From an uncultured Candidatus Saccharibacteria bacterium (GTDB taxonomy: Bacteria; Patescibacteriota; Saccharimonadia; Saccharimonadales; Saccharimonadaceae): 64,000 nt of DNA. The notes beneath the pieces were generated by a model. It did no database searches and was not told the DNA's origin. It worked only from the letters and a program-made list of their open reading frames with translations. The DNA lies in assembly GCA_947085845.1 (NCBI GenBank), contig CAMTXO010000002.1, positions 234,231-298,230 on the forward strand, in the 5' to 3' direction. The position numbers and the translations under genes were made by a program. Positions 5,902-48,476 of the stretch are shown one piece after another (the stretch's first letter is position 1; the number at the start of each line of letters is the position of its first letter).

Positions 5902-6516
5902 CTATGCGCCACTCGGCGGTGTTTCATTGCAACTTGTCACATTTGATACAGTGTACGAGTATTTATAATAATCTCTGGTAGCAAGATATGGCGTTGGGTT
6001 ATTGCCTCCGATATTAACTTGATTGCAGTAATAGAAATGTTGATTTGGCATCTCACGAAAACCAATCCGACGATACATTAATGAATTTTGTGGTGATTCG
6101 AGCATATTCCAGGCACTAAGGAGATAGTTTACTCCGTCACTGGTATACATATAACATCCAGTTGTATTGCCGTTCACGCCCTTGTTGGTATTTGGGCTAC
6201 TTTGTGGAAGTGTAGAGCTGAGGCTCGGGACCCAATCTGCTTGGCTCGATCCTACCGCACAATTGTCATCTGTCCTGGCGATATTGCTACTGCCCAGAGC
6301 TGATGCTCCGGTTGAAGGATATACGCCGTTGTCGGCATAATATAGCTCGATTTGCTTGTGGACATTTCTAATATCGGTTGCAATATCTGTCGCTTTTGCA
6401 CGAGACTGTATGCCGTTATATCCAATGATTATCAAAGCTGCAAGAATACCAATGATAACGATAACTACTAGTAGTTCTACAATTGTAAACCCTCTATTAT
6501 TAGTCATAAAGCTCAT
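5902..6516 (-). CDS. Type IV pilin-like protein (prepilin N-terminal cleavage/methylation motif)
   Basis: N-terminus is ...NNRG|FTIVELLVVIVIIGILAAL: Gly-1, Phe+1, Glu+5 and a hydrophobic helix. The C-terminal globular part has Cys pairs. Confidence 0.82.
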   Translation of the reverse strand: MSFMTNNRGFTIVELLVVIVIIGILAALIIIGYNGIQSRAKATDIATDIRNVHKQIELYYADNGVYPSTGASALGSSNIARTDDNCAVGSSQADWVPSLSSTLPQSSPNTNKGVNGNTTGCYMYTSDGVNYLLSAWNMLESPQNSLMYRRIGFREMPNQHFYYCNQVNIGGNNPTPYLATRDYYKYSYTVSNVTSCNETPPSGA

Positions 6517-7187: not shown

Positions 7188-7805
7188 CTATAGATTGGTT
7201 GGATTTGGCAATGCCATCACACAAAATGTTCCGCCACTACTACCGGAATATGTTTCTGAATAACCACTTGCGGGAGGAGTTGATGAGAATGTGCCGTATG
7301 GACTAAAACTAAGAATTGGCTTAGCTGAACATTGCTGCTGATAGCCATCTAGCATATATATGAGATACCAGGAATGCGTCACCCCGTCTAATGTCCACCC
7401 AGTCGCAGTATATTGAAACCAAGCACCTATGCGTGTTGAAGGACCGATATAAGGTATTGCCTTTGTACTGGGGGTAGGTAGCTCTGCAGTATTTCCAAGA
7501 TAGGGGCGTAGTAGGTTGTTCACGGTTGAGTTCTCGACGACACTTCCACCACCGCCACAGCCACTGGTATATGCCTCCCCTAGGCAAAAATTTGAGTTAG
7601 CTGGATATGCTCTATTGTCACTTGCATATTGGATCAGGGCTTTTTTGTACTGCTGAACAGTAGAGGTTGTTTGCGTATTCGAAGCTGTTCGGCGAATATT
7701 GCCATAAGTAATCATTATCAATGAAGCTAATATGCCAATGATAACGATAACGATTAAAAGTTCTACTATAGTAAACCCTTTTTGTAGGGCTGCCCGATTT
7801 CCCAT
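7188..7805 (-). CDS. Type IV pilin-like protein
   Basis: MGNRAALQKG|FTIVELLIVIVIIGILASL prepilin motif. The ORF-track start at 7907 is a TTG extension that runs through a terminator hairpin and the tRNA-derived repeat, so I use the ATG at 7805. Confidence 0.8.
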   Translation of the reverse strand: MGNRAALQKGFTIVELLIVIVIIGILASLIMITYGNIRRTASNTQTTSTVQQYKKALIQYASDNRAYPANSNFCLGEAYTSGCGGGGSVVENSTVNNLLRPYLGNTAELPTPSTKAIPYIGPSTRIGAWFQYTATGWTLDGVTHSWYLIYMLDGYQQQCSAKPILSFSPYGTFSSTPPASGYSETYSGSSGGTFCVMALPNPTNL

Positions 7806-7830
7806 ATCATAATGATAACGCTTTATACGA

Positions 7831-7856
7831 AAAAACCCAATCAATACTGATTGGGT
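7831..7856 (-). terminator. Intrinsic terminator-like hairpin
   Basis: Minus strand reads ACCCAATCA-GTAT-TGATTGGGT followed by TTTTTCG. It sits immediately after the tRNA-Met 3' fragment repeat. Confidence 0.6.
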
Positions 7857-7863
7857 GATTTCG

Positions 7864-7882
7864 TGGTAGCAGCGACAAGGAT
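7864..7882 (-). repeat. Direct repeat of the last 19 nt (including CCA) of tRNA-Met at 8042-8060
   Basis: + strand TGGTAGCAGCGACAAGGAT is identical at 7864-7882 and 8042-8060. Confidence 0.95.
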
Positions 7883-7893
7883 ATCGGCTAAAG

Positions 7894-7951
7894 CCTCCTC
7901 CGATCAAGCTTTCTCGAAGTGAACTTCTGCGAGAGCTTTCGCTACGCGAAC
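7894..7951 (-). other. Conserved ~58-nt structured core, copy A (paralog at 29855-29912)
   Basis: Minus strand reads GTTCGCGTAGCGAAAGCTCTCGCAGAAGTTCACTTCGAGAAAGCTTGATCGGAGGAG. It aligns with copy B with compensatory changes in the inner stem (GAAG/CTTC versus GGAA/TTCC). Confidence 0.7.
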
Positions 7952-8004
7952 TTTGTGACTATTTTGAGCAAGCTCAAAAGTCACAAGTTGATAACCTGAT
8001 AGCC

Positions 8005-8032
8005 AAATAAAATAGACCACCAATTGGTGATC
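8005..8032 (-). terminator. Intrinsic terminator of tRNA-Ser/tRNA-Met unit
   Basis: Minus strand GATCACC-AATT-GGTGGTC followed by TATTTTATTT. The stem contains a U-G pair that only works on the minus strand. Confidence 0.7.
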
Positions 8033-8041
8033 AATTTTATT

Positions 8042-8118
8042 TGGTAGCAGCGACAAGGATTGAACTTGTGACCTCAGGCTTATGAGTCCTGCGCTCTAAC
8101 CAACTGAGCTACGCTGCC
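8042..8118 (-). tRNA. tRNA-Met (CAU), elongator type
   Basis: Cloverleaf by hand: GGCAGCG/CGCTGCT acceptor (G1-U72), D arm GCTC..GAGC, anticodon loop CTCATAA, T arm ACAAG-TTCAATC-CTTGT, and encoded ACCA. The overall sequence resembles E. coli elongator tRNA-Met. Confidence 0.88.
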
Positions 8119-8594: not shown

Positions 8595-9299
8595 ATGATT
8601 AGTGCATCGCCTATTCTTGTCATCGCCTTCGCAGGTTTGCTGCATGCCAGCTTTCAACTTGGTGTAGCTTTGTTAACACTTCTCAGTGGTCATTCTTTGG
8701 GTGCGAATCGTTCATTCCGCAAACTAATGCGGCTTAATGTTGCATACCTACTTGGCGCGAGTGTTATCACTGTGTTACTTTTTGCTGCCCTGGCATATAT
8801 TGCTCTGGCGACAATTGGTGAAAATATACAAACTGCCTGGTTCATAGTTGCGCTGCTCAATATGGCTATAGGTGTTAGTGTTATGATATTTTATTATCGC
8901 CGAGAAAAAGGGACAGGGCTATGGATCCCCGACTCTATGGCGGAATATCTCAGCAAACGTGTTAAAAAAACTGATCATACCGCCGAAGCATTTACCTTGG
9001 GAGCCGGCTCGATATTAGCAGAGACTCCATTTTTAATAGGTCCGTTTTCAGTTGCAGTGCTTTATACCTTGACGCTTGATGGTGCTCAGTTGCAACTTTT
9101 TAGCTTGCTCATTTATAGCTTGATCGCACTAGCTCCTCTACTTGCTATCGTTAGCCTGGTTGGTGCTGGTCACAAGATTAGTCATATTCAAAAGTGGCGC
9201 GAAGAGAACAAACTTTTCCTCCAGTACTGTGCAGGTTGTGGATTGGTTATTTTGGGTGCGTTTGTCTTGGTTGATAAATTCATAGGAGCAGGTGTATGA
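8595..9299 (+). CDS. Integral membrane protein (6-7 TM), hypothetical
   Basis: Hydrophobic helices throughout. The stop overlaps the next start (ATGA). Confidence 0.55.
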   Translation: MISASPILVIAFAGLLHASFQLGVALLTLLSGHSLGANRSFRKLMRLNVAYLLGASVITVLLFAALAYIALATIGENIQTAWFIVALLNMAIGVSVMIFYYRREKGTGLWIPDSMAEYLSKRVKKTDHTAEAFTLGAGSILAETPFLIGPFSVAVLYTLTLDGAQLQLFSLLIYSLIALAPLLAIVSLVGAGHKISHIQKWREENKLFLQYCAGCGLVILGAFVLVDKFIGAGV

Positions 9300-9574
9300 A
9301 TTCATACGTAGTGAAGAGCGGTGGTCTGCATGAAAGTGAACTATTTGACCCGTTAAAATTGCACGGATCACTCATGGCGGCCTGTTTGGCAGTCCGCGCA
9401 CTTGAGGGTGAAGCTCATTTGGTTGCTCAAAAAATTACAGAAAAAGTAATTGACTGGCTAGAAACAAAGACCGAAGTAACAAGTGAAGATGTGCGGCGAG
9501 TTGCAGCAAATAACCTACAGGTATACCAACCAGAAGCTGCATATATTTATGAAACATATAAAACAATGTTATAA
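9296..9574 (+). CDS. Stand-alone ATP-cone-like domain protein
   Basis: 92 aa. V.K.GG..E.FD..KL...L..A pattern followed by a helical segment, typical of ATP-cone domains. Tentative. Confidence 0.45.
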   Translation: MNSYVVKSGGLHESELFDPLKLHGSLMAACLAVRALEGEAHLVAQKITEKVIDWLETKTEVTSEDVRRVAANNLQVYQPEAAYIYETYKTML

Positions 9575-9583
9575 GGAAAAAGA

Positions 9584-10954
9584 ATGGCGAAGAAAAATTT
9601 TGACTATGATGTACTAGTAATCGGCAGCGGAGCCGGTGGTTCTATTGCTGCAACAGCTGTTGCCCGCCAAGGTAAACGAGTTGCGTTAGTAGAAATGAAT
9701 GCACTGGGTGGCGATTCTGCAAACTTTGGCGATGTACCGGCAGGTGCAGTACTAAATGTTGCCCGAATATTTTCTGAAGCAAAAAATGCTGGTAAATTTG
9801 GCATTCGCTCTAACACCATAGGATACAACTATCCTACGATAAAAGCGTGGAAAGAAAAGGTAGTTGCCAAAACGAGTTCTGGTGGAGGAAAACGCTACTA
9901 TCAATCAGTTGGCGTCACAGTCATACCAGGGTCGGCACATTTTATTAGCCCACACGAGGTCTCGGTAAATCGACGCCATATATCAGCTGAATACATTGTT
10001 ATTGCGAGTGGTGCCCAGTGGGCTCTACCAAAAATCAACGGAGTAGATAAAGTAAATTTATTGACTCCTGAAACTGCTCTGGAGCTAATTCGCCCACCAA
10101 AGAGCTTGTTTATTATTGGAGGAGGGGCTGTTGGTCTGGAATTTGCGAGACTCTTTAGCGCATTTGGCAGCAAGGTATACATTGGTGAAATCGCTCCGAG
10201 GCTTTTACCTAGAGAAGATGAAGAAGCTGGCAAATTGGCAGCTAAAATACTTTCTGAACAATACGGAGTCACCCCACTACTCGAAACAAGGGTGTCTCGA
10301 GTCAGCAAAGAAGCTGTTGCAAAACGTGTTACCTTCCTACGTGGACGCGAAGAGCACTCAGTAAAAGTTGAGGAAATTTTACTCGCGACCGGGAAAACCC
10401 CTCGTGTTGATATCGGACTTGAAAATGCAGGTGTCAACTATTCGCCGCGTGGTATAGAAGTGAACGAACATCTACAAACCAGCAACAAACATATTTTTGC
10501 AGCCGGTGATGTACTGGGTGGCTTTGGTTTAACCCATGTCGCACTGATGGAAAGTCGAATTGTTGCCCATAATATTTTGCATAAAAACAAAGTGACACCA
10601 AACTATCAAAGCATCCCGCGTATCACCTACATTACTCCCGAGATTGCCTCTGTTGGAATGAGCGAAGATGATTTGATTAAACGAGATCTCAACTACAAAA
10701 AATCTGTAGTGCCTTTGGGCATTGTTGGACGCTCTATTATTACGGATAACCATGAAGGATTCGTAAAGATACTTGCTGACAAGAAATCTGGACGCTTACT
10801 AGGTGCAACCGTTGCAGCTCCGTCTGCGGGGGAAATAATACACGAGCTCACACTTGCGATTCAACATGGCCTCACAGCTAGCGACATCGCAAATACTATG
10901 CATGCATTTCCTTCATGGAGTGAAGCGGTGCGTGTAGCTTGTGCGAAAATATAA
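9584..10954 (+). CDS. Pyridine nucleotide-disulfide oxidoreductase class I homolog (Lpd/MerA/GR-like) with a degenerate active site
   Basis: FAD motif VIGSGAGGS, NAD motif IIGGGAVGLEFA, and a dimerisation domain. The redox motif GGxCxxxGCxPSK is replaced by GGDSANFGDVPAG, and C-terminal HAHPT is replaced by HAFPS. Confidence 0.85.
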   Translation: MAKKNFDYDVLVIGSGAGGSIAATAVARQGKRVALVEMNALGGDSANFGDVPAGAVLNVARIFSEAKNAGKFGIRSNTIGYNYPTIKAWKEKVVAKTSSGGGKRYYQSVGVTVIPGSAHFISPHEVSVNRRHISAEYIVIASGAQWALPKINGVDKVNLLTPETALELIRPPKSLFIIGGGAVGLEFARLFSAFGSKVYIGEIAPRLLPREDEEAGKLAAKILSEQYGVTPLLETRVSRVSKEAVAKRVTFLRGREEHSVKVEEILLATGKTPRVDIGLENAGVNYSPRGIEVNEHLQTSNKHIFAAGDVLGGFGLTHVALMESRIVAHNILHKNKVTPNYQSIPRITYITPEIASVGMSEDDLIKRDLNYKKSVVPLGIVGRSIITDNHEGFVKILADKKSGRLLGATVAAPSAGEIIHELTLAIQHGLTASDIANTMHAFPSWSEAVRVACAKI

Positions 10955-11000: not shown

Positions 11001-11078
11001 CGCGGGGTGGAGCAGTCTGGTCAGCTCGTGTGGCTCATAACCACAAGGTCGTAGGTTCAAATCCTACCCCCGCTACCA
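11001..11078 (+). tRNA. Initiator tRNA-fMet (CAU)
   Basis: CGCGGGGTGGAGCAG...GGCTCATAACC...GGTTCAAATCC...CCCCGCTACCA. It is near-identical in pattern to E. coli tRNA-fMet and has an unpaired C1xU72. Confidence 0.9.
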
Positions 11079-28174: not shown

Positions 28175-28251
28175 TGGAGGGCCAGGTGAGACTTGAACTC
28201 ACGACACCCTGCTTAAGAGGCAGGTGCTCTAACCAGCTGAGCTACTGGCCC
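28175..28251 (-). tRNA. tRNA-Lys (CUU)
   Basis: GGGCCAG acceptor, anticodon arm CCTGC-CTCTTAA-GCAGG, T arm GTGAG-TTCAAGT-CTCAC, and encoded CCA. A terminator follows at about 28142-28163. Confidence 0.9.
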
Positions 28252-28360: not shown

Positions 28361-28378
28361 CAGCTGAGCTACTGGTCC
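28361..28378 (-). repeat. 18-nt tRNA-Lys 5' fragment (pseudo-tRNA remnant)
   Basis: Minus strand GGACCAGTAGCTCAGCTG matches the acceptor and D arm of the tRNA-Lys genes. No T arm or anticodon arm follows. Confidence 0.7.
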
Positions 28379-28434: not shown

Positions 28435-29220
28435 CTATTCTTCTGGAGGTAGTGTTGCTGAAATGAGCTCTGACCAGCCGTTTACTGGATCTTGCCACTC
28501 AACCTTCACCAAGTCGTCACCAGCTCCTCCGTAGTCAACTGAACCGATATACCAAGTCGCTGTACCGCCTCCAGAGTAATTGTCGTACTGTGTTGTCTCC
28601 ATAGATGCTGTATATACACCGTCTATGTACACTGCCGCACGAATAAGTGCAGTACCTTCATATCCAGGAGGGAGGTTGGAAGTGCTTAGACTGAATTGAC
28701 CTTTTAGTGGAGCTCTTCCCTCAACTTCTAAAGTACCGTATTGACTACTCCCCTCTATTGTCTCGCCATTAAATCCGTTACCCAATGCCTCCTGTTGAAA
28801 TCCGTTGCAATCTCCTGGGAGCGGGTCTGTATTTACAGAACTTACATGGTAGTTGACAATCTGAGTCGTTGGCCACAAGCCCACAATGTCGGTAATCTCC
28901 AAACAATAACATTCTCCGTCACCACACCAACCATAGCTACTGGCATATATATAGTTATTTTCATAAGAATCCGGTACGGTACCAGCTGGTAGTTGATCAA
29001 ATTGTGGATAAGCACCTTCTTTTTTCTTGTAATCTTCGATTTTTTGTCGTGCATTCGTCAGGATAGTCTTCATTTCGGTTTGTTTTGATGAGACCACTAC
29101 TGCACCCGCGCCTACATAGCTAATTGTGGCCAGTATGCCAATAACAACTATTACTACCAAAAGTTCTACAATAGTGAAACCTTTTTGTTTTTGAATAGTA
29201 AGAGAAGTGAGCTGCTTCAT
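28435..29220 (-). CDS. Type IV pilin-like protein (large, 261-270 aa)
   Basis: ...QKQKG|FTIVELLVVIVVIGILATI prepilin motif. The ATG at 29220 (MKQLTS...) or at 29247 could be the start. Confidence 0.78.
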   Translation of the reverse strand: MKQLTSLTIQKQKGFTIVELLVVIVVIGILATISYVGAGAVVVSSKQTEMKTILTNARQKIEDYKKKEGAYPQFDQLPAGTVPDSYENNYIYASSYGWCGDGECYCLEITDIVGLWPTTQIVNYHVSSVNTDPLPGDCNGFQQEALGNGFNGETIEGSSQYGTLEVEGRAPLKGQFSLSTSNLPPGYEGTALIRAAVYIDGVYTASMETTQYDNYSGGGTATWYIGSVDYGGAGDDLVKVEWQDPVNGWSELISATLPPEE

Positions 29221-29297
29221 GTTATTTGGAATTATAACATTATGCATAAGCGGTATGCAAACAACGATACGGCCCTAGACTTGCTATTATAAATACT

Positions 29298-29837
29298 ATG
29301 CAAATCATTGCTGAAGTTAAAACATTTTCTCCCTTCGGATGGGAGTCTGATAAGAGCTGGGATGAATTGTTCGAATCAGCAAATAAAATTGGTGATATTA
29401 TTTCTATACACACAGATCCGAAATGGCATGGATCTTTCGAACTTTTAGAAAAAGCTCGAAAATTAACAAATAAACCAATTCTTGCTAAAGGTATACACGC
29501 CCGCGATGAAGATATCGAACAAGCTGTACGATCTGGAGCTAATTACGTGCTTGTTGTTGGTAGGCTGCCAAAAATACATCTTGATAAATGTTTTATTGAA
29601 CCAAATACACTGAAAGAATTAGCAAATTTACCGAGTGATATCAAAGCTGTATGGAATAGTCGAGATCTTACTACTGGCGGCCTTAAAAAGCATACATTTG
29701 ATGATGCTCGAAAGGTCTTTGATGGGTGGTTATGTCAAGCAAGTAATATTTCTAGCTCTAAGGACATTAATAACAAAGCTGATGCTATTTTGGTTGGTAC
29801 ACATTTGGAAAATTTTAAAGTACACCCGACAGGATAG
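29298..29837 (+). CDS. Indole-3-glycerol-phosphate synthase (TrpC)-like minimal TIM-barrel protein
   Basis: IIAEVKTFSPFG / ISIHTD..W.GSFE.L / PILAKG / ILVGTHL are co-linear with IGPS motifs (IAEIKKASPSKG, ISVLTD, PIL.KDF, LIGSALM). The last 6 codons (KVHPTG*) are encoded by the tRNA-Arg-derived repeat. Confidence 0.55.
   Translation: MQIIAEVKTFSPFGWESDKSWDELFESANKIGDIISIHTDPKWHGSFELLEKARKLTNKPILAKGIHARDEDIEQAVRSGANYVLVVGRLPKIHLDKCFIEPNTLKELANLPSDIKAVWNSRDLTTGGLKKHTFDDARKVFDGWLCQASNISSSKDINNKADAILVGTHLENFKVHPTG
29820..29835 (-). repeat. Direct repeat of 16 nt of the 3' end of tRNA-Arg (29983-29998)
   Basis: + strand GTACACCCGACAGGAT is present at both positions. Confidence 0.93.
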
Positions 29838-29854
29838 CGCTTCACTTCGTTGCG

Positions 29855-29912
29855 CTCCTCCACTCAATATTTCTCGGAACAAGTTCCTGCGAGAGATTTC
29901 GCTACGCCGAAC
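29855..29912 (-). other. Conserved ~58-nt structured core, copy B (paralog of 7894-7951)
   Basis: Minus strand reads GTTCGGCGTAGCGAAATCTCTCGCAGGAACTTGTTCCGAGAAATATTGAGTGGAGGAG. Confidence 0.7.
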
Positions 29913-29946
29913 CTTACAGTTCTCGCATACTCACGTATGCAACCAT

Positions 29947-29971
29947 ATAAAAAGCCCATGACAAGCATGGG
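29947..29971 (-). terminator. Intrinsic terminator of tRNA-Arg
   Basis: Minus strand CCCATG-CTTGT-CATGGG followed by CTTTTTAT. Confidence 0.7.
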
Positions 29972-29980
29972 ATTTTTATA

Positions 29981-30057
29981 TGGTACACCCGACAGGATTC
30001 GAACCTATGGCCTTCGGCTCCGCAAGCCGACGCTCTATCCAGCTGAGCTACGGGTGC
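29981..30057 (-). tRNA. tRNA-Arg (GCG)
   Basis: GCACCCG/CGGGTGT acceptor (G1-U72), anticodon arm TCGGC-TTGCGGA-GCCGA, T loop TTCGAAT, and encoded CCA. Confidence 0.85.
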
Positions 30058-30250: not shown

Positions 30251-31267
30251 ATGCAACAAAATATACCACTCAAAGATTACACTACTATGAGACTCGGGGG
30301 ACCAGCTAAATATATGGCTACTGCCGAAACAAAAGAAGAGCTTGTCTCCTTGGTTGAACAAGCGGGTACTTTGCCAATACTGGTGCTCGGACAGGGCAGC
30401 AATGTCATTGTGAGCGACAAGGGCTTTGATGGTTTAGTTATTCTAAATAGAATTACCGGGTACGAAGTATTTGATGAAAATCCTGCAACAACAAAAATAA
30501 AAGTTGGTGCCGGGGAAAATTGGGATTCAGTGGTAGCGCGAACAACAGAGATGGGGCTAAGTGGCATAGAGTGCTTATCTGCAATTCCAGGATTTTGCGG
30601 CGCTGCACCAGTTCAAAATATTGGTGCATATGGCCAAGAAATTGCCGACACACTACTCGAACTTGAAGCGTATGACCTACGCACAAAAACGTTTGTGACT
30701 TTTAGTAACTCAGATTGTGACTTCACATACAGAAGAAGTATATTTAATTCCGAGGCAAATAAACGTCGATACATTATTACGAGTTTAGTTCTAGAGCTTC
30801 AAAAAACTATCCTGGAGCCACCTTTTTATAGTAGTTTACAGATATATCTTGATAAAAATCAGATTACCGACTACAACCCATATAATCTAAGGGAAGCTGT
30901 TAGGACTATCCGTACTACAAAATTACCCGATCCAACTATTATTCCAAACACGGGATCTTTCTTTAAAAATCCAATTGTAGAAAAGTGGCAGGCTGAAAAT
31001 TTACAAAAAGAATATCCAGATATCAAAGTATTTCCTATGGATGAAAATTTTTCAAAACTTGCTGCTGGATGGCTTGTCGAAAATGCAATTATGAAAGATC
31101 TAGAAATGGACGGATTTAAGGTCTATGAAAAAAACGCGTTAGTTATTACAAACACAGGCTCGGGCACATATGAAGGTCTGGTGAACATTAAGAATCATAT
31201 AACGGAAGCAGTACGTGACAGCTTTCGCATAACATTGGAGCAAGAGCCAGAGGAGGTTGGAATATGA
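30251..31267 (+). CDS. murB: UDP-N-acetylenolpyruvoylglucosamine reductase MurB
   Basis: LKDYTTMRLGGPAKY N-terminus, FAD-binding GQGSN.., and C-terminal GSFFKNP motif. Confidence 0.9.
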   Translation: MQQNIPLKDYTTMRLGGPAKYMATAETKEELVSLVEQAGTLPILVLGQGSNVIVSDKGFDGLVILNRITGYEVFDENPATTKIKVGAGENWDSVVARTTEMGLSGIECLSAIPGFCGAAPVQNIGAYGQEIADTLLELEAYDLRTKTFVTFSNSDCDFTYRRSIFNSEANKRRYIITSLVLELQKTILEPPFYSSLQIYLDKNQITDYNPYNLREAVRTIRTTKLPDPTIIPNTGSFFKNPIVEKWQAENLQKEYPDIKVFPMDENFSKLAAGWLVENAIMKDLEMDGFKVYEKNALVITNTGSGTYEGLVNIKNHITEAVRDSFRITLEQEPEEVGI

Positions 31268-31959
31268 AAAACAAAGGATTTAGCGTGGTAGAAATGGTAA
31301 TTGTCATTACAATTATCGGGATACTGGCTGGCCTAGGTACCGTACAAATGCTACGGTCGCAGGCTGTAGCTCGAGATCAAGAGCGCGCAGATGACACACG
31401 ATCGATTGCAATTAACCTACAAGATATTTACGACACTGGTCAAATTGATGGTGAGATCATCGCTAGTGGTGACGGTACAATTACAAGCGCTGTTAACATG
31501 GGCTATCCGAGCACCGCACTACTCAATCCCCCAGCATCAAGCGCATCTCAGGCAAATGGAATTATACAGAGCATTCGATTAGATGCACTGAAAAGTCCGT
31601 ATCTTCCCAACTCAGCAACTAGTCCAAACTTTAGTATGGTTGCTGCCACCTCGACTGCAGACCTAAACAACACAAACAAAACCGCTGGGGGTATTACACT
31701 AGGTAAAACAAATGACGCATACGTGTATCAGCCTCTTGATGCTAATGGTGCATTGTGCGCATTTGCAACAGGGCTTGTCTCAACGGGAGTAGGTGCGAGT
31801 GCTACTATACCCACAAAAACAGGATCTACTTCTCAAGCTGTTATCGCACCTAGACTCGTAGATAATTGTGTAAAATTCAATTTATATTACTATTCGGAAG
31901 CAAACGATACGATTATCAAGGTACAGAGTGCCAAAAGTACAAGTGATGGTTTATACTAA
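31264..31959 (+). CDS. Prepilin-type N-terminal motif protein (minor pilin/pseudopilin-like)
   Basis: MKNKG|FSVVEMVIVITIIGILAGL. The start overlaps the murB stop (ATGA). Confidence 0.75.
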   Translation: MKNKGFSVVEMVIVITIIGILAGLGTVQMLRSQAVARDQERADDTRSIAINLQDIYDTGQIDGEIIASGDGTITSAVNMGYPSTALLNPPASSASQANGIIQSIRLDALKSPYLPNSATSPNFSMVAATSTADLNNTNKTAGGITLGKTNDAYVYQPLDANGALCAFATGLVSTGVGASATIPTKTGSTSQAVIAPRLVDNCVKFNLYYYSEANDTIIKVQSAKSTSDGLY

Positions 31960-31973
31960 TAACTATAAGTGTT

Positions 31974-32402
31974 ATGAATAAAAAACAATCTGGTTTCACT
32001 ATAGTCGAGCTACTAGTTACAGTCATTACGGCTGCTATGTTTGTGGCTATGTTTTATCAGCTATATGTTGTGTTGGTAGGTATAAATGCAACAGCTCGCA
32101 ACACTGCCCAAGCGAGTGATTTGGCGTATTCAAACCTTAGGCTATACCCTACTGTTGTTAGTACAGGCTTGACGTGTAATGCAGGTACGAATGTCTCAAC
32201 TACTGTGAATCTTATACCAGCTAGCGGCTCGCCAGTTGCTGTGACCAACGCTAATTACCCCGAACTTGGAGCGGTAACAGAACAACTAACGGCCCAATTC
32301 CCATACGGCTGCGCAGCTGTATACAATGTTGTAAAACTAGTATCAACGGTCACTTATGGATCTACGTCCTACAAGGTAAGTTATGCGACATATGTTAACT
32401 AA
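31974..32402 (+). CDS. Minor pilin-like protein
   Basis: MNKKQSG|FTIVELLVTVI. Confidence 0.72.
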   Translation: MNKKQSGFTIVELLVTVITAAMFVAMFYQLYVVLVGINATARNTAQASDLAYSNLRLYPTVVSTGLTCNAGTNVSTTVNLIPASGSPVAVTNANYPELGAVTEQLTAQFPYGCAAVYNVVKLVSTVTYGSTSYKVSYATYVN

Positions 32403-33123
32403 TAACCAAAAAGGCTTTACTTTGGTTGAAGTAGCCGTTATTGCACCTATGATGATACTGATTGCTTTGGCGATCGTGGCTGTGCTTGTTACGCTTGTCA
32501 GCAGTACTGTTGCTCCAAATGCAAAGGCGTTACTGATGCAACAGCAAGAAAAAGCATTTGATACTATTGAAAACGACATCAACAACAGCAGTACACTCCT
32601 CTCTACTTTGCCTGCAAATTTCAGCGATAGCGTCGCAAGCGACTACGCAACTCCACCGGCAAATACAGAAATATTACGAGTGCAAGGCTATGATCAGATA
32701 CAAAACCCAGGCGATACTAGTGGTACAAAAGTAATACCGGCTTTTAAAGATACTGCTGTATGTAGCAATATAACTGACCTTAGCGCATCGAACATTGTCC
32801 CGGTCGTTATCATTTACTTTGTAAAAGACAATATTTTATATAGAAGAACTTTAATCGAAGACACTCCCTCGAGCACATGCGGAACGAAATTGGCAAAAGA
32901 GACAGGATGCGCACAAGCCTCATGCACCAAAGACACTCAGCTCGTCCAAGGAGACACTATCCTAATATTTGACATAGAATACTACTCTACTACTACAGGA
33001 ACGACTACAACCACCCCTGCTTTGGCTAAAAGCGCCAAAATAACTATAAAGAGTGCTCTTAATGCGGGTGGTGACAGTATCGAGTATGCGGCTAGTATCA
33101 GGGCTGCACGACTAAATAATTAG
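32383..33123 (+). CDS. Minor pilin-like protein
   Basis: ...NNQKG|FTLVEVAVIAPMMILIAL. It overlaps the previous gene by about 10-20 nt. Confidence 0.7.
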   Translation: MRHMLTNNQKGFTLVEVAVIAPMMILIALAIVAVLVTLVSSTVAPNAKALLMQQQEKAFDTIENDINNSSTLLSTLPANFSDSVASDYATPPANTEILRVQGYDQIQNPGDTSGTKVIPAFKDTAVCSNITDLSASNIVPVVIIYFVKDNILYRRTLIEDTPSSTCGTKLAKETGCAQASCTKDTQLVQGDTILIFDIEYYSTTTGTTTTTPALAKSAKITIKSALNAGGDSIEYAASIRAARLNN

Positions 33124-33200
33124 TCAAAAAAAGTATTGCACTTATGCTTAGTATGGTATATGCTTTGTACATACAACAAAATTTAATTAGGGGGCAAAAG

Positions 33201-33635
33201 ATGACCTTTAACAATATTAAAATGAAAAACAAAGAAGGTGGCTTCACCATCGTCGAACTCTTGATCGTAATTGTGATCATTGGTATTTTGGCAGCCTTGG
33301 TGATTGTCGCTTACACAGGTATCCAAACTCGTGCACGTGATGCAAAGAGCCAAACTGATGCGCAAGCAATTCTTAAGAAAGCTGAAGCTTATGCAGCTGA
33401 CAGCAACGGTATTTACCCAGCTAACGAAGCAGGCTTTGGTACTGGTGTAGGTGCTTTAGGTACAGATCTTGCTGCAGTACTAGGTGACGGAACATCAGCT
33501 GTTCTTCCAGCTATTACAACTCACGGTGATATCCGTGGTTGGGCATGTGGTACAACACCAAACTTTACTGGTTACAAGATTCGTTACTGGTATAACGGTG
33601 CTGTAGCTACAATTGCTGCTGGTACAACTTGTTAA
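33201..33635 (+). CDS. Major-pilin-like protein, paralog 1
   Basis: SD AGGGGG lies 6 nt before the ATG at 33201. ...KEGG|FTIVELLIVIVIIGILAALVIVAYTG. A Cys pair is formed by WAC and the terminal C. The ORF-track start at 33144 has no RBS. Confidence 0.82.
   Translation: MTFNNIKMKNKEGGFTIVELLIVIVIIGILAALVIVAYTGIQTRARDAKSQTDAQAILKKAEAYAADSNGIYPANEAGFGTGVGALGTDLAAVLGDGTSAVLPAITTHGDIRGWACGTTPNFTGYKIRYWYNGAVATIAAGTTC
33238..33471 (+). repeat. Near-identical 234-bp block shared by the two pilin paralogs (copy 1); a second identical block lies at 33537-33601
   Basis: Compared base by base with 33857-34090. There are only six differences, all synonymous, clustered at about 33350-33385. Confidence 0.9.
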
Positions 33636-33671
33636 GAGTGTAGATACTTACTATAAAAGTAATGAAAATTT

Positions 33672-33711
33672 GGAAAACATAAACCGCTCGTACGAGCGGT
33701 TTATGTTTTCC
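33672..33711 (+). terminator. Long perfect-palindrome terminator between the pilin paralogs
   Basis: GGAAAACATAAACCGCTCG-TA-CGAGCGGTTTATGTTTTCC. Confidence 0.75.
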
Positions 33712-33819
33712 ACACAGTTAATTGTTTGTCTTATTTCTGTATTGCGTTTATGGTAACAATGAAATATTATGAAGCATATAACAAATTGAATAAAAATAAC
33801 TAATAACTAGGGGGCATAA

Positions 33820-34254
33820 ATGATAACTGAACAATTACAAAGTGCAACGAGACAGCGTGGCTTCACCATCGTCGAACTCTTGATCGTAATTGTGATCATT
33901 GGTATTTTGGCAGCCTTGGTGATTGTCGCTTACACAGGTATCCAAACTCGTGCACGTGATGCAAAGAGCCAAACAGATGCACAGGCAATACTTAAAAAGG
34001 CTGAAGCTTATGCAGCTGACAGCAACGGTATTTACCCAGCTAACGAAGCAGGCTTTGGTACTGGTGTAGGTGCTTTAGGTACAGATCTTGGAACGGTACT
34101 ACAAAACGGTACTTCAGCGCTACTACCTGCAATCACAACCCACGGTACTATATATGGTTGGGCATGTGGTACAACACCAAACTTTACTGGTTACAAGATT
34201 CGTTACTGGTATAACGGTGCAATATCGTCAATTGCTGCTGGTACAACCTGCTAG
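33820..34254 (+). CDS. Major-pilin-like protein, paralog 2
   Basis: SD AGGGGG before the ATG. ...RQRG|FTIVELL.... It is identical to paralog 1 over most of its length. Confidence 0.85.
   Translation: MITEQLQSATRQRGFTIVELLIVIVIIGILAALVIVAYTGIQTRARDAKSQTDAQAILKKAEAYAADSNGIYPANEAGFGTGVGALGTDLGTVLQNGTSALLPAITTHGTIYGWACGTTPNFTGYKIRYWYNGAISSIAAGTTC
33857..34090 (+). repeat. Near-identical 234-bp block (copy 2); second identical block at 34156-34220
   Basis: See the entry for 33238-33471. Confidence 0.9.
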
Positions 34255-39710: not shown

Positions 39711-41192
39711 CTACTCTACTATATTATCTTTCCTGAAGTTATGGCGAGTTACTCGTTGCATATATATCGCTACGACTAATAATATAGCGTAGAATATAAT
39801 AACTCCAAAAATTGTAAAAGAAATATCTACTGAAACATTTGGTATACTGGCAAACCAGTCTATAACACTTGTCATATATGTTAATACAAAAAAAGCAGGT
39901 ATGCCCACAAAAGCCACCGATAGAGGAATGATGACAGCAAGAATACCAGCTACAAAAACAAATAGCATAGCCAATGGAACAAAAGGTAGTACTAGAAGAT
40001 TTGCAGGAAGAGCAAACAGCGCTAATATACCAAAACTAAATGCAATAATGGGCAATGTTGTTAACTGCGCAGAAATTGTCTCGCCTAAGATTTGTTGTAT
40101 CGTGCCCGGCTTTTTAGAACCAAAAAAATAGTTTTGAAAAAGTGGCGCCAATATCATTACTCCGGCGAATGCTGAAAATGATAGATACCAGCCCAAGTCT
40201 CCCCACATAAAACCAGGATTTATAAAAACAGTTACTGCAGCAGCAAACGGTAAAAGCACCATCGGGTGTATTTTTCGACCATAGTACCATGCAGCTAGGC
40301 TTAGTCCAGTTACCAATCCTGCACGCGTCATGCTGGGGCTAAATCCAGTCACTAATATAAAACTAAAAATCATCAAGCTACTCGAGAGCATAGCTAGGTA
40401 TTTTGAAATACTAGCAAATAGTCTACGAGCAAAACGTACCAAAATCGTCAGATTATACCCGCTGGCTACAACAATATGCGTCAGTCCAACTAGGCGCAGC
40501 TGTTCTTGCAGGCTCTCGGGTAAGCTTGATTTTTGACCAACTAAGTATCCTATTCCCAGACTAGCTTCTGGTTCGGGGATAGCTTTTCGGATACCGTCAC
40601 TAAACCAATCACGCAGCTCGCGGGCTTTATCGCTGTGTGTATTTTCTACGACCAAAATTTTTGCACGATACATACTAGCTGAAAAACTACCGAAACCTTC
40701 GTCTAAGCTACCACTCGAAGTCACTACATATCCCCGTTTTATATCCAAGTCTGTTGTCGTACTGAGCCAAATTGTGCCCAAAAAATCCCTTCCTTCCACA
40801 GAGATACTACTCAATTTGATTTGTTTTTCCCCATGCTTACCTGTTGTAACATCTTCACTTACAATGCCTTTTATTTTTACTGATTTGCTATACAACTGGT
40901 TATACCTTTCCAGTTGTATTTGAGTAGGTACTGCTCGTGCAATTCCCAACAACATACCAGATATTATAGCTAGAATAATAAACAAAGTTTTTCTTTTCCA
41001 AAAACATAAAAGAAGCAGTAATATCGCAGAGACAAACCAACTGAACCCATAAAATATCTCTGCAATTTGCAGGGTAGAAAATCCAACGCCCGTCAGAAAA
41101 CCAGCTGATACAAATGCAATGAAAACTGATGCGTGCTGCTGTCGTTTTAAAAACAGACTGATTTTTTGCATAATAAAATCATACCAGAACAA
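39711..41192 (-). CDS. comEC: ComEC/Rec2-family DNA uptake channel (no metallo-beta-lactamase domain)
   Basis: OB-like DUF4131 region followed by the competence-domain TM bundle (GLTHIVVASGYNLTIL). The alternative start is 41171. Confidence 0.8.
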   Translation of the reverse strand: MFWYDFIMQKISLFLKRQQHASVFIAFVSAGFLTGVGFSTLQIAEIFYGFSWFVSAILLLLLCFWKRKTLFIILAIISGMLLGIARAVPTQIQLERYNQLYSKSVKIKGIVSEDVTTGKHGEKQIKLSSISVEGRDFLGTIWLSTTTDLDIKRGYVVTSSGSLDEGFGSFSASMYRAKILVVENTHSDKARELRDWFSDGIRKAIPEPEASLGIGYLVGQKSSLPESLQEQLRLVGLTHIVVASGYNLTILVRFARRLFASISKYLAMLSSSLMIFSFILVTGFSPSMTRAGLVTGLSLAAWYYGRKIHPMVLLPFAAAVTVFINPGFMWGDLGWYLSFSAFAGVMILAPLFQNYFFGSKKPGTIQQILGETISAQLTTLPIIAFSFGILALFALPANLLVLPFVPLAMLFVFVAGILAVIIPLSVAFVGIPAFFVLTYMTSVIDWFASIPNVSVDISFTIFGVIIFYAILLVVAIYMQRVTRHNFRKDNIVE

Positions 41193-45728: not shown

Positions 45729-48476
45729 CTATTTTTTATTTAATAGTCGCCAGATAGCAAGACCTATAAGACCCAGCCCGAGCAGACCCAAAAGTATATA
45801 TGTCTGGTCTTTGAGCCAATATAAAACTGCTAGGGCTACACCAGATGAGCCCCATAAAACAACCAAGCGATAGTTTAATACCCCACCGATAGTTAACAAA
45901 ATTACATGTTCTATAAGAAATATCATCTGGTATTTACTAGGATCACCTAGTGCAGCCAGACCTGTAGGGATACTTAGTATACAAAGCGCAGCAATAAGCC
46001 AATGTAGGGCATTATTTTTGTCTGATATTACATAACGTGCACCAGCTAGCACCGCTAGTATAATAGCCCACCAATGTGTATAGACGAGCATGTCGTAATT
46101 ACCACCAAGCGAAAACATTCTTTGCATTGCTAATGTAGCTACTACTGCTGCAGCTTCGTAATAGCCATGTTTTTTTGTACAAGCACCCTCTACCGCCAAT
46201 ATGGCTGCTGCTGCCAATAGTGTTAGAGATGCATTCAGTGCCGTGGTATCAGAGAAGAAGTGGTAGAAAGATCCAAAGAATAGAACAACAAGGCTAATTA
46301 CTACCCAAAACTGAGTTGCAGGTGTGTCTTGACGCTGCCGGCGAAGCCACGCGAGACCATAAAATATTATTGCCCACCAATTTGCATATAGCAGTACGCT
46401 AATATCATTTGCAGTATTTACAGCCACAATTCGTTGCAATGCTAATGTGGTAGCAAGTATAGCGATCTCATAGTATTCATGCTGTTTGTATACCCAGCCC
46501 TCGGCAGTTATTAATACTGATGCTGCAATTAATGTAGCTGCGGCAGCAATTGTATAGGAATCGAAGAATATAAATATCAACCCAGAAGCCATCAGCAGTA
46601 ATACACTGTAGACTCCCATAATTTGAGCTCGAACCTGGTCTTTTTGTGTTGGGAAGAATATTCTTAGTGGATAAAATATAGCAGCAGCTATCCAGGAAGT
46701 CGTCAGTAATCTACGGACCATATCTTCTTCAAATGTACCAACTAGCATATATACTGCAACCAGGAAAACGGCGTTTGCAATAATTTGAATCTGCCCTGTT
46801 TTTTCAATATAAGAAACAGCAGTTAGCAAGATAGCAATGATAGTAAAGTAAGCTGCAGCCCATTCAAAAGCCAAGTTCAAACTTATGATACCGGCGATTA
46901 TTAGATATAGACTATAGCCAGCGATTATTACTTCCTTCTTCTCACCCACTTTTGCCCATAACATTCTGAGCGCTATTGCCGCAGCGCCTATAGCAACGTA
47001 AGCACCAGCTATTAACTGGTAAGACAACTGAGAATCCATGAGGTCTCTGCCGATTTGGATTGGAAGTGCCGCTGCTACAAATATTCCTACCAGTGCAAAA
47101 CGTGCCTGTTGTAGCCAGGCAGCAAGGCTAATGCTTGTAACTACAGTGAGCGCTAGTGATGCAGTGGTCATTTCGGCACGAATATCGGATTGACTCCACA
47201 ATGATATAGCGACAAGCAGGACAGCCATGCCTCCCCAGATCCAAAATTGTTCATCATCACTTTTTGTCTTTTTGATAACCACCGCAGATATAATAATCTG
47301 CACAAGAGCGACAGACGAGAGCACAATACCCGTAGTGACGAGATCTTTTGAAGAAATGTCGTAGGTAAACAATACTACAGCTATACTTGCTGCCAAACGT
47401 GCAAGAAATACATAGATTTGACGATAACTATCTTTGCTAGGTGCAAGCGCAGCTACCCCGTAATGTAGCGCGGCTACCGCCAAAACTACAGCATTTTGCC
47501 ATAGCGGTACCTGGGAGACACCCCACCAACTACCAAATACTGCTAACGGGACAGCTAGCTGTCCGCTATCGTCAATAGGCTTCAAGAAAACACCAGGTAA
47601 TAATTTTGGCCGTAGAAACGCAATAATATTTAGTATTGATGCTACCAAAATAATGAGGATAAAGTACCATACAAATCCTATCTGCAGCACCGCAACGGAA
47701 GAGGTAGTCATTGAGAACACAAAACCAAGAGTTAGATATGCAAGGACTTGGCTCTGCAGTTTTAGCGTCGCAAACAGGAACAATACTAGTCCCAAAATAG
47801 ATGTGATAAACCAACTGAGTACAGGGTCGTGTAATACGAATGTATTTGTAGCAAGCCCAGCAAATGGAAGTAGCGCCAAACCTGTACCAATAAATGCGAC
47901 CGCCGCTGGTCGTAACCGCTGGCTAGAACTATGGAGAATCATTCCCGAACCATAGAACCCTATGGTTACCGCCCAGGCGCCTATAAACTTTAGACTATTG
48001 TCGACTGATCCGCCTATAAATAGTACAGCGGCAGCGACTAATAAAAAGCTGGCAACATATAATATGGTATTAATATTCTGAAGATCACGCTGCTCTTTTG
48101 TTTTCTCATGCGTAATAATCGGTTGCTTTGTTGTTTTTCGTTGTTTTGGAGTAGTTTCTTCAGCTTCTTCACCATCAGAAAAAGGAGACCAGCTGGCCTC
48201 CGTTTCTGTTTTTTCTAGTGTTGCGGTTTGTTTTACTTCCTCACTAACAGTTTTTGTAGCGCTAGTCACGCCCATTTCTTTTAGTAAAACACTCTTATTG
48301 ATCAGTTTCGGTTGTGACGATATAAATGCCACCATATAGTCTCTAACTTCACGTTGACCTTGGAGTCTTAGCTCGTCATTGCTAGCTTTTCCAGAACTAT
48401 TCCCTTTGCCTATAAAGTAGCCAATAGCAAATGGTACCCCAAATACCAACGCCAAGATTAGAAGTATCCCCTCCAT
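45729..48476 (-). CDS. Very large polytopic membrane protein (915 aa) with internal repeats
   Basis: About 25 or more TM helices. The module EG...K.H.YYE.A...TLA.QR....D....Y..WWAII occurs twice. Confidence 0.6.
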   Translation of the reverse strand: MEGILLILALVFGVPFAIGYFIGKGNSSGKASNDELRLQGQREVRDYMVAFISSQPKLINKSVLLKEMGVTSATKTVSEEVKQTATLEKTETEASWSPFSDGEEAEETTPKQRKTTKQPIITHEKTKEQRDLQNINTILYVASFLLVAAAVLFIGGSVDNSLKFIGAWAVTIGFYGSGMILHSSSQRLRPAAVAFIGTGLALLPFAGLATNTFVLHDPVLSWFITSILGLVLFLFATLKLQSQVLAYLTLGFVFSMTTSSVAVLQIGFVWYFILIILVASILNIIAFLRPKLLPGVFLKPIDDSGQLAVPLAVFGSWWGVSQVPLWQNAVVLAVAALHYGVAALAPSKDSYRQIYVFLARLAASIAVVLFTYDISSKDLVTTGIVLSSVALVQIIISAVVIKKTKSDDEQFWIWGGMAVLLVAISLWSQSDIRAEMTTASLALTVVTSISLAAWLQQARFALVGIFVAAALPIQIGRDLMDSQLSYQLIAGAYVAIGAAAIALRMLWAKVGEKKEVIIAGYSLYLIIAGIISLNLAFEWAAAYFTIIAILLTAVSYIEKTGQIQIIANAVFLVAVYMLVGTFEEDMVRRLLTTSWIAAAIFYPLRIFFPTQKDQVRAQIMGVYSVLLLMASGLIFIFFDSYTIAAAATLIAASVLITAEGWVYKQHEYYEIAILATTLALQRIVAVNTANDISVLLYANWWAIIFYGLAWLRRQRQDTPATQFWVVISLVVLFFGSFYHFFSDTTALNASLTLLAAAAILAVEGACTKKHGYYEAAAVVATLAMQRMFSLGGNYDMLVYTHWWAIILAVLAGARYVISDKNNALHWLIAALCILSIPTGLAALGDPSKYQMIFLIEHVILLTIGGVLNYRLVVLWGSSGVALAVLYWLKDQTYILLGLLGLGLIGLAIWRLLNKK

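Follow-up and report, generated by a model that had tools for sequence, protein, structure and literature searches.

Two tRNA-linked modules in one contig

The stretch of DNA analysed here (the window) comprises 64,000 nucleotides of an uncultured Candidatus Saccharibacteria bacterium, positions 234,231 to 298,230 of contig CAMTXO010000002.1, and the subject of this work is a short module without a gene that lies behind its elongator tRNA-Met gene and ends in a copy of that tRNA's own tail. The tRNA-Met(cat) gene (8118->8042) is on the minus strand, with tRNA-Ser(gct) (8214->8122) 3 nt ahead of it on the same strand, and it is followed in order by an intrinsic terminator (T1), a bulged hairpin, a conserved core, a short hairpin, the trinucleotide GAT, the 19-nt repeat, a second terminator (T2) and the start of a pilin gene. 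The parts of the Met module are as follows:

8042-8118, minus strand: elongator tRNA-Met(cat), the intact target (ARAGORN and Rfam; repeat search)
8006-8041, minus strand: T1, a palindromic intrinsic terminator, stem 8032-8015 between an A-tract and a T-tract, borne by the element (terminator scan)
7980-8005, minus strand: inverted, partly deleted copy of the tRNA-Met 3' third, TGGCTATCAGGTTATCAACTTGTGAC (cognate alignment score)
7989-7948, minus strand: bulged hairpin, AACTTGTGAC (7989-7980) paired with GTCACAAAGTT (7958-7948)
7960-7979, minus strand: inner hairpin, TTTTGAGC TT GCTCAAAA, the turnaround between the inverted and direct tRNA copies
7947-7959, minus strand: direct copy of the variable-loop/T-stem 5' strand plus the T-loop start, GTCACAAAGTTCG
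7898-7946, minus strand: conserved core, one long bulged hairpin (covariation counts; covariance model R1, 82.3 bits)
7883-7905, minus strand: purine tract GATCGGAGGAG overlapping the 3' strand of stem P0, terminal hairpin and GAT (alignments A2 and A3)
7895-7886, minus strand: the variable short terminal hairpin itself, GGCTTTAGCC
7864-7882, minus strand: direct repeat, identical to the final 19 nt of tRNA-Met, from T-loop position ~58 to CCA (repeat search)
7829-7856, minus strand: T2, a second intrinsic terminator, hairpin 7856-7835 (terminator scan)

The last 19 nt of the tRNA-Met gene (8060-8042) are the upstream member of the direct repeat, and the constant GAT directly abuts the downstream member. 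The core of this module spans 7946-7893 on the minus strand, and the core common to both window modules (below) is about 75 nt long. The list of open reading frames (ORFs) contains none of relevant size in the module, and the start codon of the type IV pilin gene lies beyond T2 at 7805. An initial annotation, made from the letters alone, had described the tRNA, terminators, hairpins, core and repeat; each is present on the minus strand where it had been placed, and the repeat is exact, CCA included. Could the repeat vanish on re-assembly, as had been considered? Single contigs of two independent sequencing runs (X2 and X3) retain it and match 7600-8097 without a difference, so the repeat and the module are not an assembly artefact. 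The metagenome-assembled genome (MAG) L004 carries the same module at the orthologous tRNA-Met.

The same architecture and core had also been reported behind tRNA-Arg with a different tRNA repeat, and this second module was recovered, ending in 16 nt of its own tRNA's tail (29835-29820). It consists of:

29981-30057, minus strand: tRNA-Arg(gcg), target of the second module (ARAGORN and Rfam)
29907-29980, minus strand: proximal part, made up of T1 (29980-29944), TGGTT and two hairpins
29836-29906, minus strand: core (P3 = GGAA-CTTG-TTCC), purine tract, long terminal hairpin and GCT (R1, 84.5 bits)
29820-29835, minus strand: 16-nt copy of the tRNA-Arg 3' end, ATCCTGTCGGGTGTAC, with the final CA uncopied (repeat search)

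One proximal hairpin of the Arg module is GCATAC-GTGA-GTATGC at 29940-29925, and the GAACT-GTAA-GGTTCGG hairpin holds a T-arm-like copy. The two core blocks occur in the window only at the Met and Arg loci, and shuffled sequences give expectations of 0.00 and 0.04. Between the two modules GAAG/CTTC is exchanged for GGAA/TTCC in the innermost stem, and the two agree in their TCTC/GAGA stem, GCA bulge and GGAGGAG tract, all as originally noted.

Next to the Arg module, the match of a 179-amino-acid ORF on the plus strand (29298-29837) to the indole-3-glycerol-phosphate synthase profile is confined to profile positions 49-140. Towards its 3' end the ORF reads through the tRNA-Arg repeat in reverse complement, and its stop falls within the final bases of the module. 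A truncated gene beside the insertion is the probable reading.

A family of modules at many tRNA genes

Species-representative genomes and metagenome contigs were scanned with core patterns, and a covariance model (R1) was then built from 24 copies. Together the pattern scans and the model search, the latter of a kind that had been proposed as a check on the two window copies, gave a family of 30 core copies, all of them in Candidatus Saccharibacteria MAGs or in unbinned contigs of the same make-up. Wherever flanking sequence is available, every copy is followed by the tail of its own tRNA, from T-loop position ~58. Pattern matches in other phyla lie inside ORFs, and the rest of the core is absent from them. 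The copies stand behind at least 12 tRNA species, namely tRNA-Met (elongator and initiator), Arg(gcg), Arg(tcg), Ser(tga), Ser(gct), Ser(gga), Pro, Val(cac), Val(gac), Asn and Lys(ctt). Across the copies 138-177 nt separate the end of the tRNA from the repeat, the smallest units are ~157 bp, and the related loci contain 15 direct repeats of a tRNA 3' segment besides the 19-nt and 16-nt repeats of the window.

Searches of other collections returned no further members. Rfam 15 reported only tRNAs at the gathering score and nothing at E<=10 in 7780-8060, and the listed RNA runs have only tRNA words in common with the module, the core being in none of them. Three scans of the 2.9 million viral contigs of IMG/VR gave no true core copy: the strict-core scan had 0 matches, the relaxed P2-P3 pattern had 72 chance matches with the flanking blocks in none, and the 5' block pattern had 3 matches, inside ORFs and with no model match. 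A search of the literature did not find a description of this element.

Covariation in the core

The stems of the Met core are P1 (AAGC/GCTT, then an AA bulge), P2 (TCTC/GAGA, then the GCA bulge) and P3 (GAAG-TTCA-CTTC), to which RNAalifold added the long-range P0 pairs between alignment columns 8-56, 12-52 and 13-51. With this pairing 97% of the cells are paired in the 24-copy MAFFT alignment (~90% in shuffles, at most 43% in slid controls), and 94.9% in the 30-copy model alignment (83.5% in shuffles, at most 46% in slid controls), which is biased towards the structure to which it was fitted. Changes on both sides are seen in 8 of the 15 pairs in the 30-copy model alignment. P3 occurs as GAAG/CTTC, GGAA/TTCC, GGAG/CTCC and GATG/CATC; pair 18-46 is G-C, U-A or A-U in the 24-copy alignment; and pair 8-56 is C-G in 20, U-A in 9 and U-G in 1 of the 30 copies. 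Divergent "type II" copies have the whole P1 helix replaced (AGTCA/TGACT, AAAAG/CTTTT or AGTCG/CGGCT) with the architecture kept, and the terminal hairpin before the repeat varies in sequence and length and keeps its pairing. P2 and part of the flanks were fixed by the search patterns, so their invariance says little. The proposal that the structure is under selection, which came from two compensatory swaps, is thus strengthened by covariation that persists across 30 copies.

The helices contain 8 G-T and 8 A-C mismatches, and this equality does not favour an RNA read from one strand. Among orthologous cores that share a P3 allele, the first 58 nt are 93-98% identical and the 85 nt upstream 66-88%.

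Several other structures were considered and dropped. A GCGNAGC mini-hairpin at the core's 5' end gave way to long-range pairing, which the 8-56 covariation favours; neither a closing stem nor base-pairing between purine tract and repeat was consistent among copies; a tRNA-like fold of the module would have no 5' acceptor strand; hammerhead and hairpin ribozyme motifs gave no match; and a mini-ORF following GGAGGAG was not conserved.

tRNA-derived copies inside the module

Two parts of the module were absent from the initial annotation, namely an inverted copy of the tRNA's 3' third and a direct copy that is split by the core. The inverted copy comes right after T1 and often reaches from TGGT, complementary to ACCA, across the T-arm, with deletions inside it. 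In the window Met module AACTTGTGAC, once reverse-complemented, agrees exactly with tRNA positions GTCACAAGTT, and the inverted copy has an alignment score of 22 with its cognate tRNA against a mean of 11.4 and a maximum of 18 with non-cognate tRNAs. The cognate score is above the non-cognate maximum in most of 21 modules, and in L025 the inverted copy reads TGGTGG-ATGGAAGGATCCCGAACCTC, in agreement with TGGTGGGCGATGGAGGATTCGAACCTC, which is the tRNA 3' third in reverse complement. The direct copy, taken from the variable-loop/T-stem 5' strand of the module's own tRNA and ending GGTTCG, always stands immediately ahead of the core (in the window Met module one additional A in it bulges against the inverted copy). 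The core thus takes exactly the place that the T-loop would have in a partial copy of the tRNA, and separates positions ~57 and ~58.

The core-bearing modules (type A) have the same layout and size as two coreless types, B (L002, elongator tRNA-Met) and C (L003, tRNA-Lys(ctt)). All three run from the tRNA through T1, the inverted copy and the inner hairpin to the direct copy, which is split by the core in type A. The B-type insert (L002, 1-276, minus strand) is ~157 nt long and has an inverted T-arm copy and other hairpins, followed by an uninterrupted 29-nt repeat of the whole T-arm to CCA and then a T1-like terminator; it has the terminal hairpin GGCTTTAGCC in common with the window module. 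The C-type module (L003, 3650-3962, minus strand) has an uninterrupted 22-nt T-arm repeat, at +154, and beyond the T-arm its inverted copy departs from the tRNA complement mostly by G-to-A changes.

Drawn as a circle, the modelled element is quasi-palindromic, its putative turnarounds being T1 and the inner hairpin. Predicted folds of hypothetical excised circles have energies of, for instance, -30.1 kcal/mol (shuffles -10.4 ± 3.1) and -50.5 kcal/mol (shuffles -15.5 ± 3.2), so that the circular folds of the window elongator Met and L025 elements are 20-35 kcal/mol better than shuffles. In the predicted folds of L025 and of the B-type L002 elongator Met module the pairing around T1 joins the tRNA tail to the inverted copy. 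The inverted copy and the location of the core inside a T-loop copy argue against a plain double-stranded tyrosine-integrase scar and point towards a folded-DNA site.

Filled and empty sites, arrays and cargo

Are these modules insertions? The initiator tRNA-Met gene of the window (11001-11078) is empty, and at the syntenic locus of L002 the same tRNA carries a 175-bp module. Past its 19-nt repeat the L002 sequence is the one that lies directly past the tRNA in the window, so that presence and absence differ cleanly with the junction exactly at the repeat, and T1 is missing from the window's empty site. This comparison indicates that T1 is borne by the element and that T2 is native; by analogy, T2 of the window Met module would be the native terminator of tRNA-Met. 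T1 of the window Met module is ~85% identical (by eye) to T1 of the L002 initiator module, the inner hairpin is closely related and retains its pairing in initiator modules, and only the tRNA-derived segments differ. Insertion regenerates an intact tRNA with the element's terminator and leaves the displaced tRNA tail as the direct repeat. Two more sites are polymorphic: tRNA-Ser(gct) has a module in L002 and L004 (where it separates tRNA-Ser from tRNA-Met) and is empty in the window, and tRNA-Lys(ctt), likewise empty in the window, carries a module with a perfect 19-nt repeat in L026. The module thus has the tRNA repeat and the insertion polymorphism by which tRNA-targeting integrative elements are recognised, and it has them without an integrase.

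Units also occur in series. L016 and L022 have two or three tandem units, each with its own repeat, and L017 has three cores within 2.7 kb; the ORFs between them, one per interval, encode 172 and 311 amino acids and have no Pfam match, and one Arg(tcg)-type repeat stands amid Arg(gcg)-type repeats. In that array (L017, 1-2714, minus strand) each core is trailed by a second segment resembling a truncated core (GCAGGAATNTAC..CGAGCACGG...TTGCGATAGCAACC), with the full repeat after it, and in L025 too the core has stacked remnants of this kind behind it. One of the L017 cargo genes has homologues in ordinary operons, from which cores are absent.

Orthologous modules can have identical flanks and different P3 alleles (window versus L004), and several cores are mismatched at pair 18-46, as left/right chimeras would be. 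Swapped P3 alleles and mosaic cores indicate that cores recombine with each other.

Search for a recombinase

No recombinase lies between the tRNA and the core in any copy (0 of 30), and Pfam searches found none among 30 window ORFs or among 10 cargo or neighbour ORFs; the window ORFs beyond the 30 scanned have starts that resemble housekeeping genes. The statement that the Met module has no integrase therefore holds for the module and also for the 30 window ORFs scanned. Nor was an integrase-bearing element with this core seen among the viral contigs or in islands at orthologous sites. The latter were reached through homologues of a 234-amino-acid neighbour, and the tRNA-Met and initiator-tRNA sites in relatives contain large islands from which the core is absent.

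These islands have contents of their own. L104 (8044-9621) has metal-homeostasis genes and the gene of a large serine recombinase, the 3' end of which overlaps with the tail of tRNA-Met; L105 (12353-16191) has a reverse transcriptase and an HNH-like nuclease; and L107 (1-9300 and 13100-17900) has copper-resistance genes.

Proposed integration through a folded attachment site

The reading we favour, tentatively and with somewhat less than even confidence, is that the modules are non-autonomous integrative elements whose attachment site works as folded DNA and which are moved by a recombinase acting in trans. The window Met module would then be a cargo-less member of a family that inserts in the T-loop-to-CCA segment of tRNA genes, a placement we also put just short of an even call. 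Among the three options initially offered, a miniature non-autonomous integrative element fits best, given the filled and empty sites, the tandem arrays and the cargo units, and the option of a conserved prophage attR arm found no support, since no integrase-bearing element with the core was seen. There is a fair chance that the module reflects a new mechanism.

How might such an element move? The integrated layout has one working target and two dead target copies in opposite orientation; this is a CTXphi-like layout without a recombinase of its own, and it suggests, by analogy, integration via a folded attachment site. In a single strand or an extruded cruciform the inverted and direct copies would anneal and, in this model, rebuild a duplex that mimics the T-arm and 3' end of the tRNA gene; the core hairpin would branch off from it where the crossover takes place. 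By analogy with known systems, a recombinase encoded elsewhere in the genome would exchange strands between this folded site and the tRNA gene. At the window Met locus the element would supply the last 19 nt of tRNA-Met now at 8060-8042, and the repeat at 7864-7882 would be the displaced original 3' end. The core could serve as a recognition structure, as a block to second-strand exchange or as a priming site. The integrated double-stranded form would be a poor substrate, so that copies would persist, decay at the repeat and pile up in arrays. A folded site explains the inverted copy and where the core lies, as well as the compensatory changes, the absence of a wobble strand bias, the arrays and the missing recombinase.

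A broader version of this proposal is possible and, in our judgement, rather doubtful: that Saccharibacteria have a hitherto undescribed system of mobile DNA, made up of recombinase-less cassettes, from a bare ~157-nt site to single-gene units, that integrate at the T-loop of essentially any tRNA gene via a folded single-stranded site made of mirror copies of the target, with the core recognised by a host recombinase. Such a cassette system would possibly be a tRNA-directed counterpart of CTXphi/Xer and of integron attC sites, perhaps fed by natural competence.

Several observations weigh against integration through a folded site. No recombinase could be tied to the family in the modules, their neighbours or the 30 window ORFs. 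The contigs of X1-X5, X9 and X10, a form of data that drops rare variants, contained neither a circle joint nor an empty site from the same population. By exact match, only the generic part of the inverted copy (CGAACC/GGTTCG) can be recognised in roughly half of the modules. The collection scans demanded conserved core bases, which biases both the breadth of the family and the conservation of P2. A change of tRNA requires replacement of three tRNA-derived segments, which the model does not explain. The conservation of the core above its flanks could equally mean a function in situ, for example as RNA. Finally, the closest relative at the Met site, L102, is not a clean empty site: it keeps a T1-like terminator without the rest of the module (9250-9640, minus strand: tRNA-Met, the T1-like terminator, then the pilin gene directly), and its sequence suggests that the hairpins, core, repeat and T2 were lost by deletion between the terminators' TTGG(G)TTTTT ends.

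Alternative explanations

The alternative that survives best, although we consider it unlikely, is that the core is a small structured RNA gene or cis-acting RNA element that sits on old tRNA-linked scars and is kept by the host. The suggestion of a small RNA unit, which had been made at the outset, fares well as far as the conserved fold is concerned: there are compensatory changes and invariant unpaired nucleotides (the GCA bulge, the AA bulge, a G-N-A/G-G-A internal loop and the purine tract), the RNA fold is more stable than shuffles (z = -5.3), the unit lies between two intrinsic terminators, and the core is more conserved than its flanks in orthologues that share a P3 allele. As a transcript, however, it fares poorly. 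There is no promoter-like site between T1 and the core, and T1 should halt read-through from the tRNA; G-U is not in excess over A-C in the helices (8 versus 8), and no Rfam family matched even at E<=10. A small RNA would also leave unexplained the inverted tRNA copy, the strict position in the T-loop copy, the arrays and the insertion polymorphism.

Somewhat less probable again is that the modules are deletion remnants (attL plus attR arms) of integrase-bearing prophages or islands at tRNA genes, with the core as an attP arm. The same tRNA genes do host islands in relatives (the L104 serine recombinase, metal resistance, and the reverse transcriptase with HNH nuclease), and degraded, integrase-less elements with tandem partial-tRNA repeats are known, for example the tycheposon arrays of Prochlorococcus (10.1101/2020.12.28.424599). 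Such degraded tycheposons and the cis-mobilizable elements (CIMEs) of streptococci resemble the modules in that a tRNA 3' repeat bounds the insert, the tRNA is regenerated, accretion is in tandem and there is no integrase. They are, however, remnants or parasites of identified autonomous elements and have double-stranded att sites, whereas no autonomous partner was found for the modules, which at ~157 bp combine an inverted target copy with a structured core across at least 12 tRNA specificities. Against island scars there are also the 0 of 30 copies with a recombinase between tRNA and core, the clustering of sizes at 138-177 nt where random deletions would scatter, the absence of the core from islands at orthologous sites and the failure to find a true copy in the 2.9 million viral contigs. 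Double-stranded arms, moreover, predict neither compensatory stem changes within one genome, such as GAAG against GGAA in the window, nor an inverted target copy.

Is only the core mobile? We regard it as improbable, slightly more so than island scars, that the ~75-nt core alone is a hairpin mini-element that inserts in T-loop DNA (GGTTCG^AATCC), and equally improbable that such an element would survive just in the dispensable partial tRNA copies left by an older, coreless B-type element. In every case the core lies exactly between the T-loop halves of a partial tRNA copy, and coreless modules with otherwise the same layout have the T-arm repeat uninterrupted (29 nt in the L002 elongator Met and 22 nt in the L003 Lys module). 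Orthologous modules with identical flanks and different core alleles (window versus L004) also fit, as do the similar short direct motifs at the core ends (GYGNAGCGA...NAGCGAT). Yet no core was seen outside a tRNA-copy context, no pair of modules differing solely in the presence of the core was found, and no candidate for a transposase came to light. In addition, homology between modules at different tRNAs extends to T1 and the inner hairpin, so that more than the core travels together.

Three further ideas were dropped: a guide RNA (scaffold plus 3' spacer, with homing of the TnpB or CRISPR-associated transposon kind), because the initiator Met repeat is contiguous with native flank; an analogy with IS91 or with the bridge RNA of IS110, because ends and repeats misfit; and a miniature inverted-repeat transposable element or other palindromic derivative of IS200-IS605, of which there would be just two copies in 64 kb, both behind tRNAs and with the flanking 16-19 nt always a tRNA tail.

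Comparison with known recombination systems

Integration through a folded site, the reading favoured above, has its closest relations in two systems, of which integrons are the first. Integron integrases use the attC site in a folded form, the recombination site being a hairpin. Like attC, the module site appears to be defined by a bulged hairpin with compensatory change, single-gene units lie between sites (L017), and, as with integron cassettes, the enzyme would act in trans. In contrast to integrons, no intI/attI platform was found and no integrase was seen in any locus with modules, and the arrays start at tRNA genes. Unlike attC, alignments A2 and A3 contain no R/L boxes (RYYYAAC/GTTRRRY), the ends being GGTTCGG.../...GCGAT, the core sequence is highly conserved, and each unit carries tRNA-derived segments. 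The pdif modules of Acinetobacter plasmids are also small and recombinase-less and are bounded by host-recombinase sites of alternating orientation; pdif sites are XerC/XerD binding sites on plasmids, with no tRNA link and no conserved hairpin.

The second system is that of phages and other integrative mobile elements exploiting Xer (IMEX). In the single-stranded genome of CTXphi, two sites similar to dif, attP1 and attP2, in opposite orientation and ~90 bp apart, form a ~150-nt forked hairpin, which XerCD joins to dif by a single strand exchange, so that integration gives one functional and two non-functional sites (PMC3089051). The modules are like CTXphi and IMEX in having no recombinase, two target-like sites in opposite orientation that can anneal, and a restored target that permits arrays. 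Unlike CTXphi and IMEX, they target the T-arm/3' end of many tRNA genes rather than dif, with no Xer gene or dif implicated, they go down to ~157 bp with no replication or packaging genes, and their central region is a conserved 50-75-nt hairpin rather than a few mismatched bases.

The bacteria of the Candidate Phyla Radiation have tiny genomes with few recognisable mobile elements, and gene exchange among them is poorly understood. If integration through a folded site is correct, a gene-less module that is defined by structure and retargets across a dozen tRNAs would explain part of the plasticity at tRNA hot spots, and it would be a third case of folded-DNA recombination after integrons and the Xer-exploiting phages. 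It would also offer a compact, ~160-bp integration site that looks programmable by sequence, for genetic tools in newly tractable organisms. If instead the core is an RNA, it would be a new class of conserved non-coding RNA specific to Saccharibacteria.

Other features of the window

The window contains many type IV pilin-like genes with the N-terminal motif GFTIVELL (5902-6516, 7188-7805, 28435-29247 and 31264-34254) and a gene for the ComEC competence channel at 39711-41192. By their sequences these fit a naturally competent Saccharibacteria genome, and DNA that enters by competence does so as single strands, which makes it relevant to the proposed mechanism.

An OLD-family nuclease gene on the minus strand (51289-53142, AAA_15/AAA_21 plus TOPRIM) lies beside a divergent ORF of 372 amino acids on the plus strand (49696-50814) that has no Pfam match, and the two may be a defence pair. 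A 915-amino-acid ORF on the minus strand (45729-48476) matches no Pfam family at E<=0.001. Lastly, 18 nt from the 5' part of a gene resembling tRNA-Lys(ttt) (GGACCAGTAGCTCAGCTG), followed by unrelated sequence, are present on the minus strand at 28361-28378, ~110 nt upstream of the intact tRNA-Lys(ctt) gene (28175-28251), and from their sequence they look like what is left of a disrupted tRNA gene.

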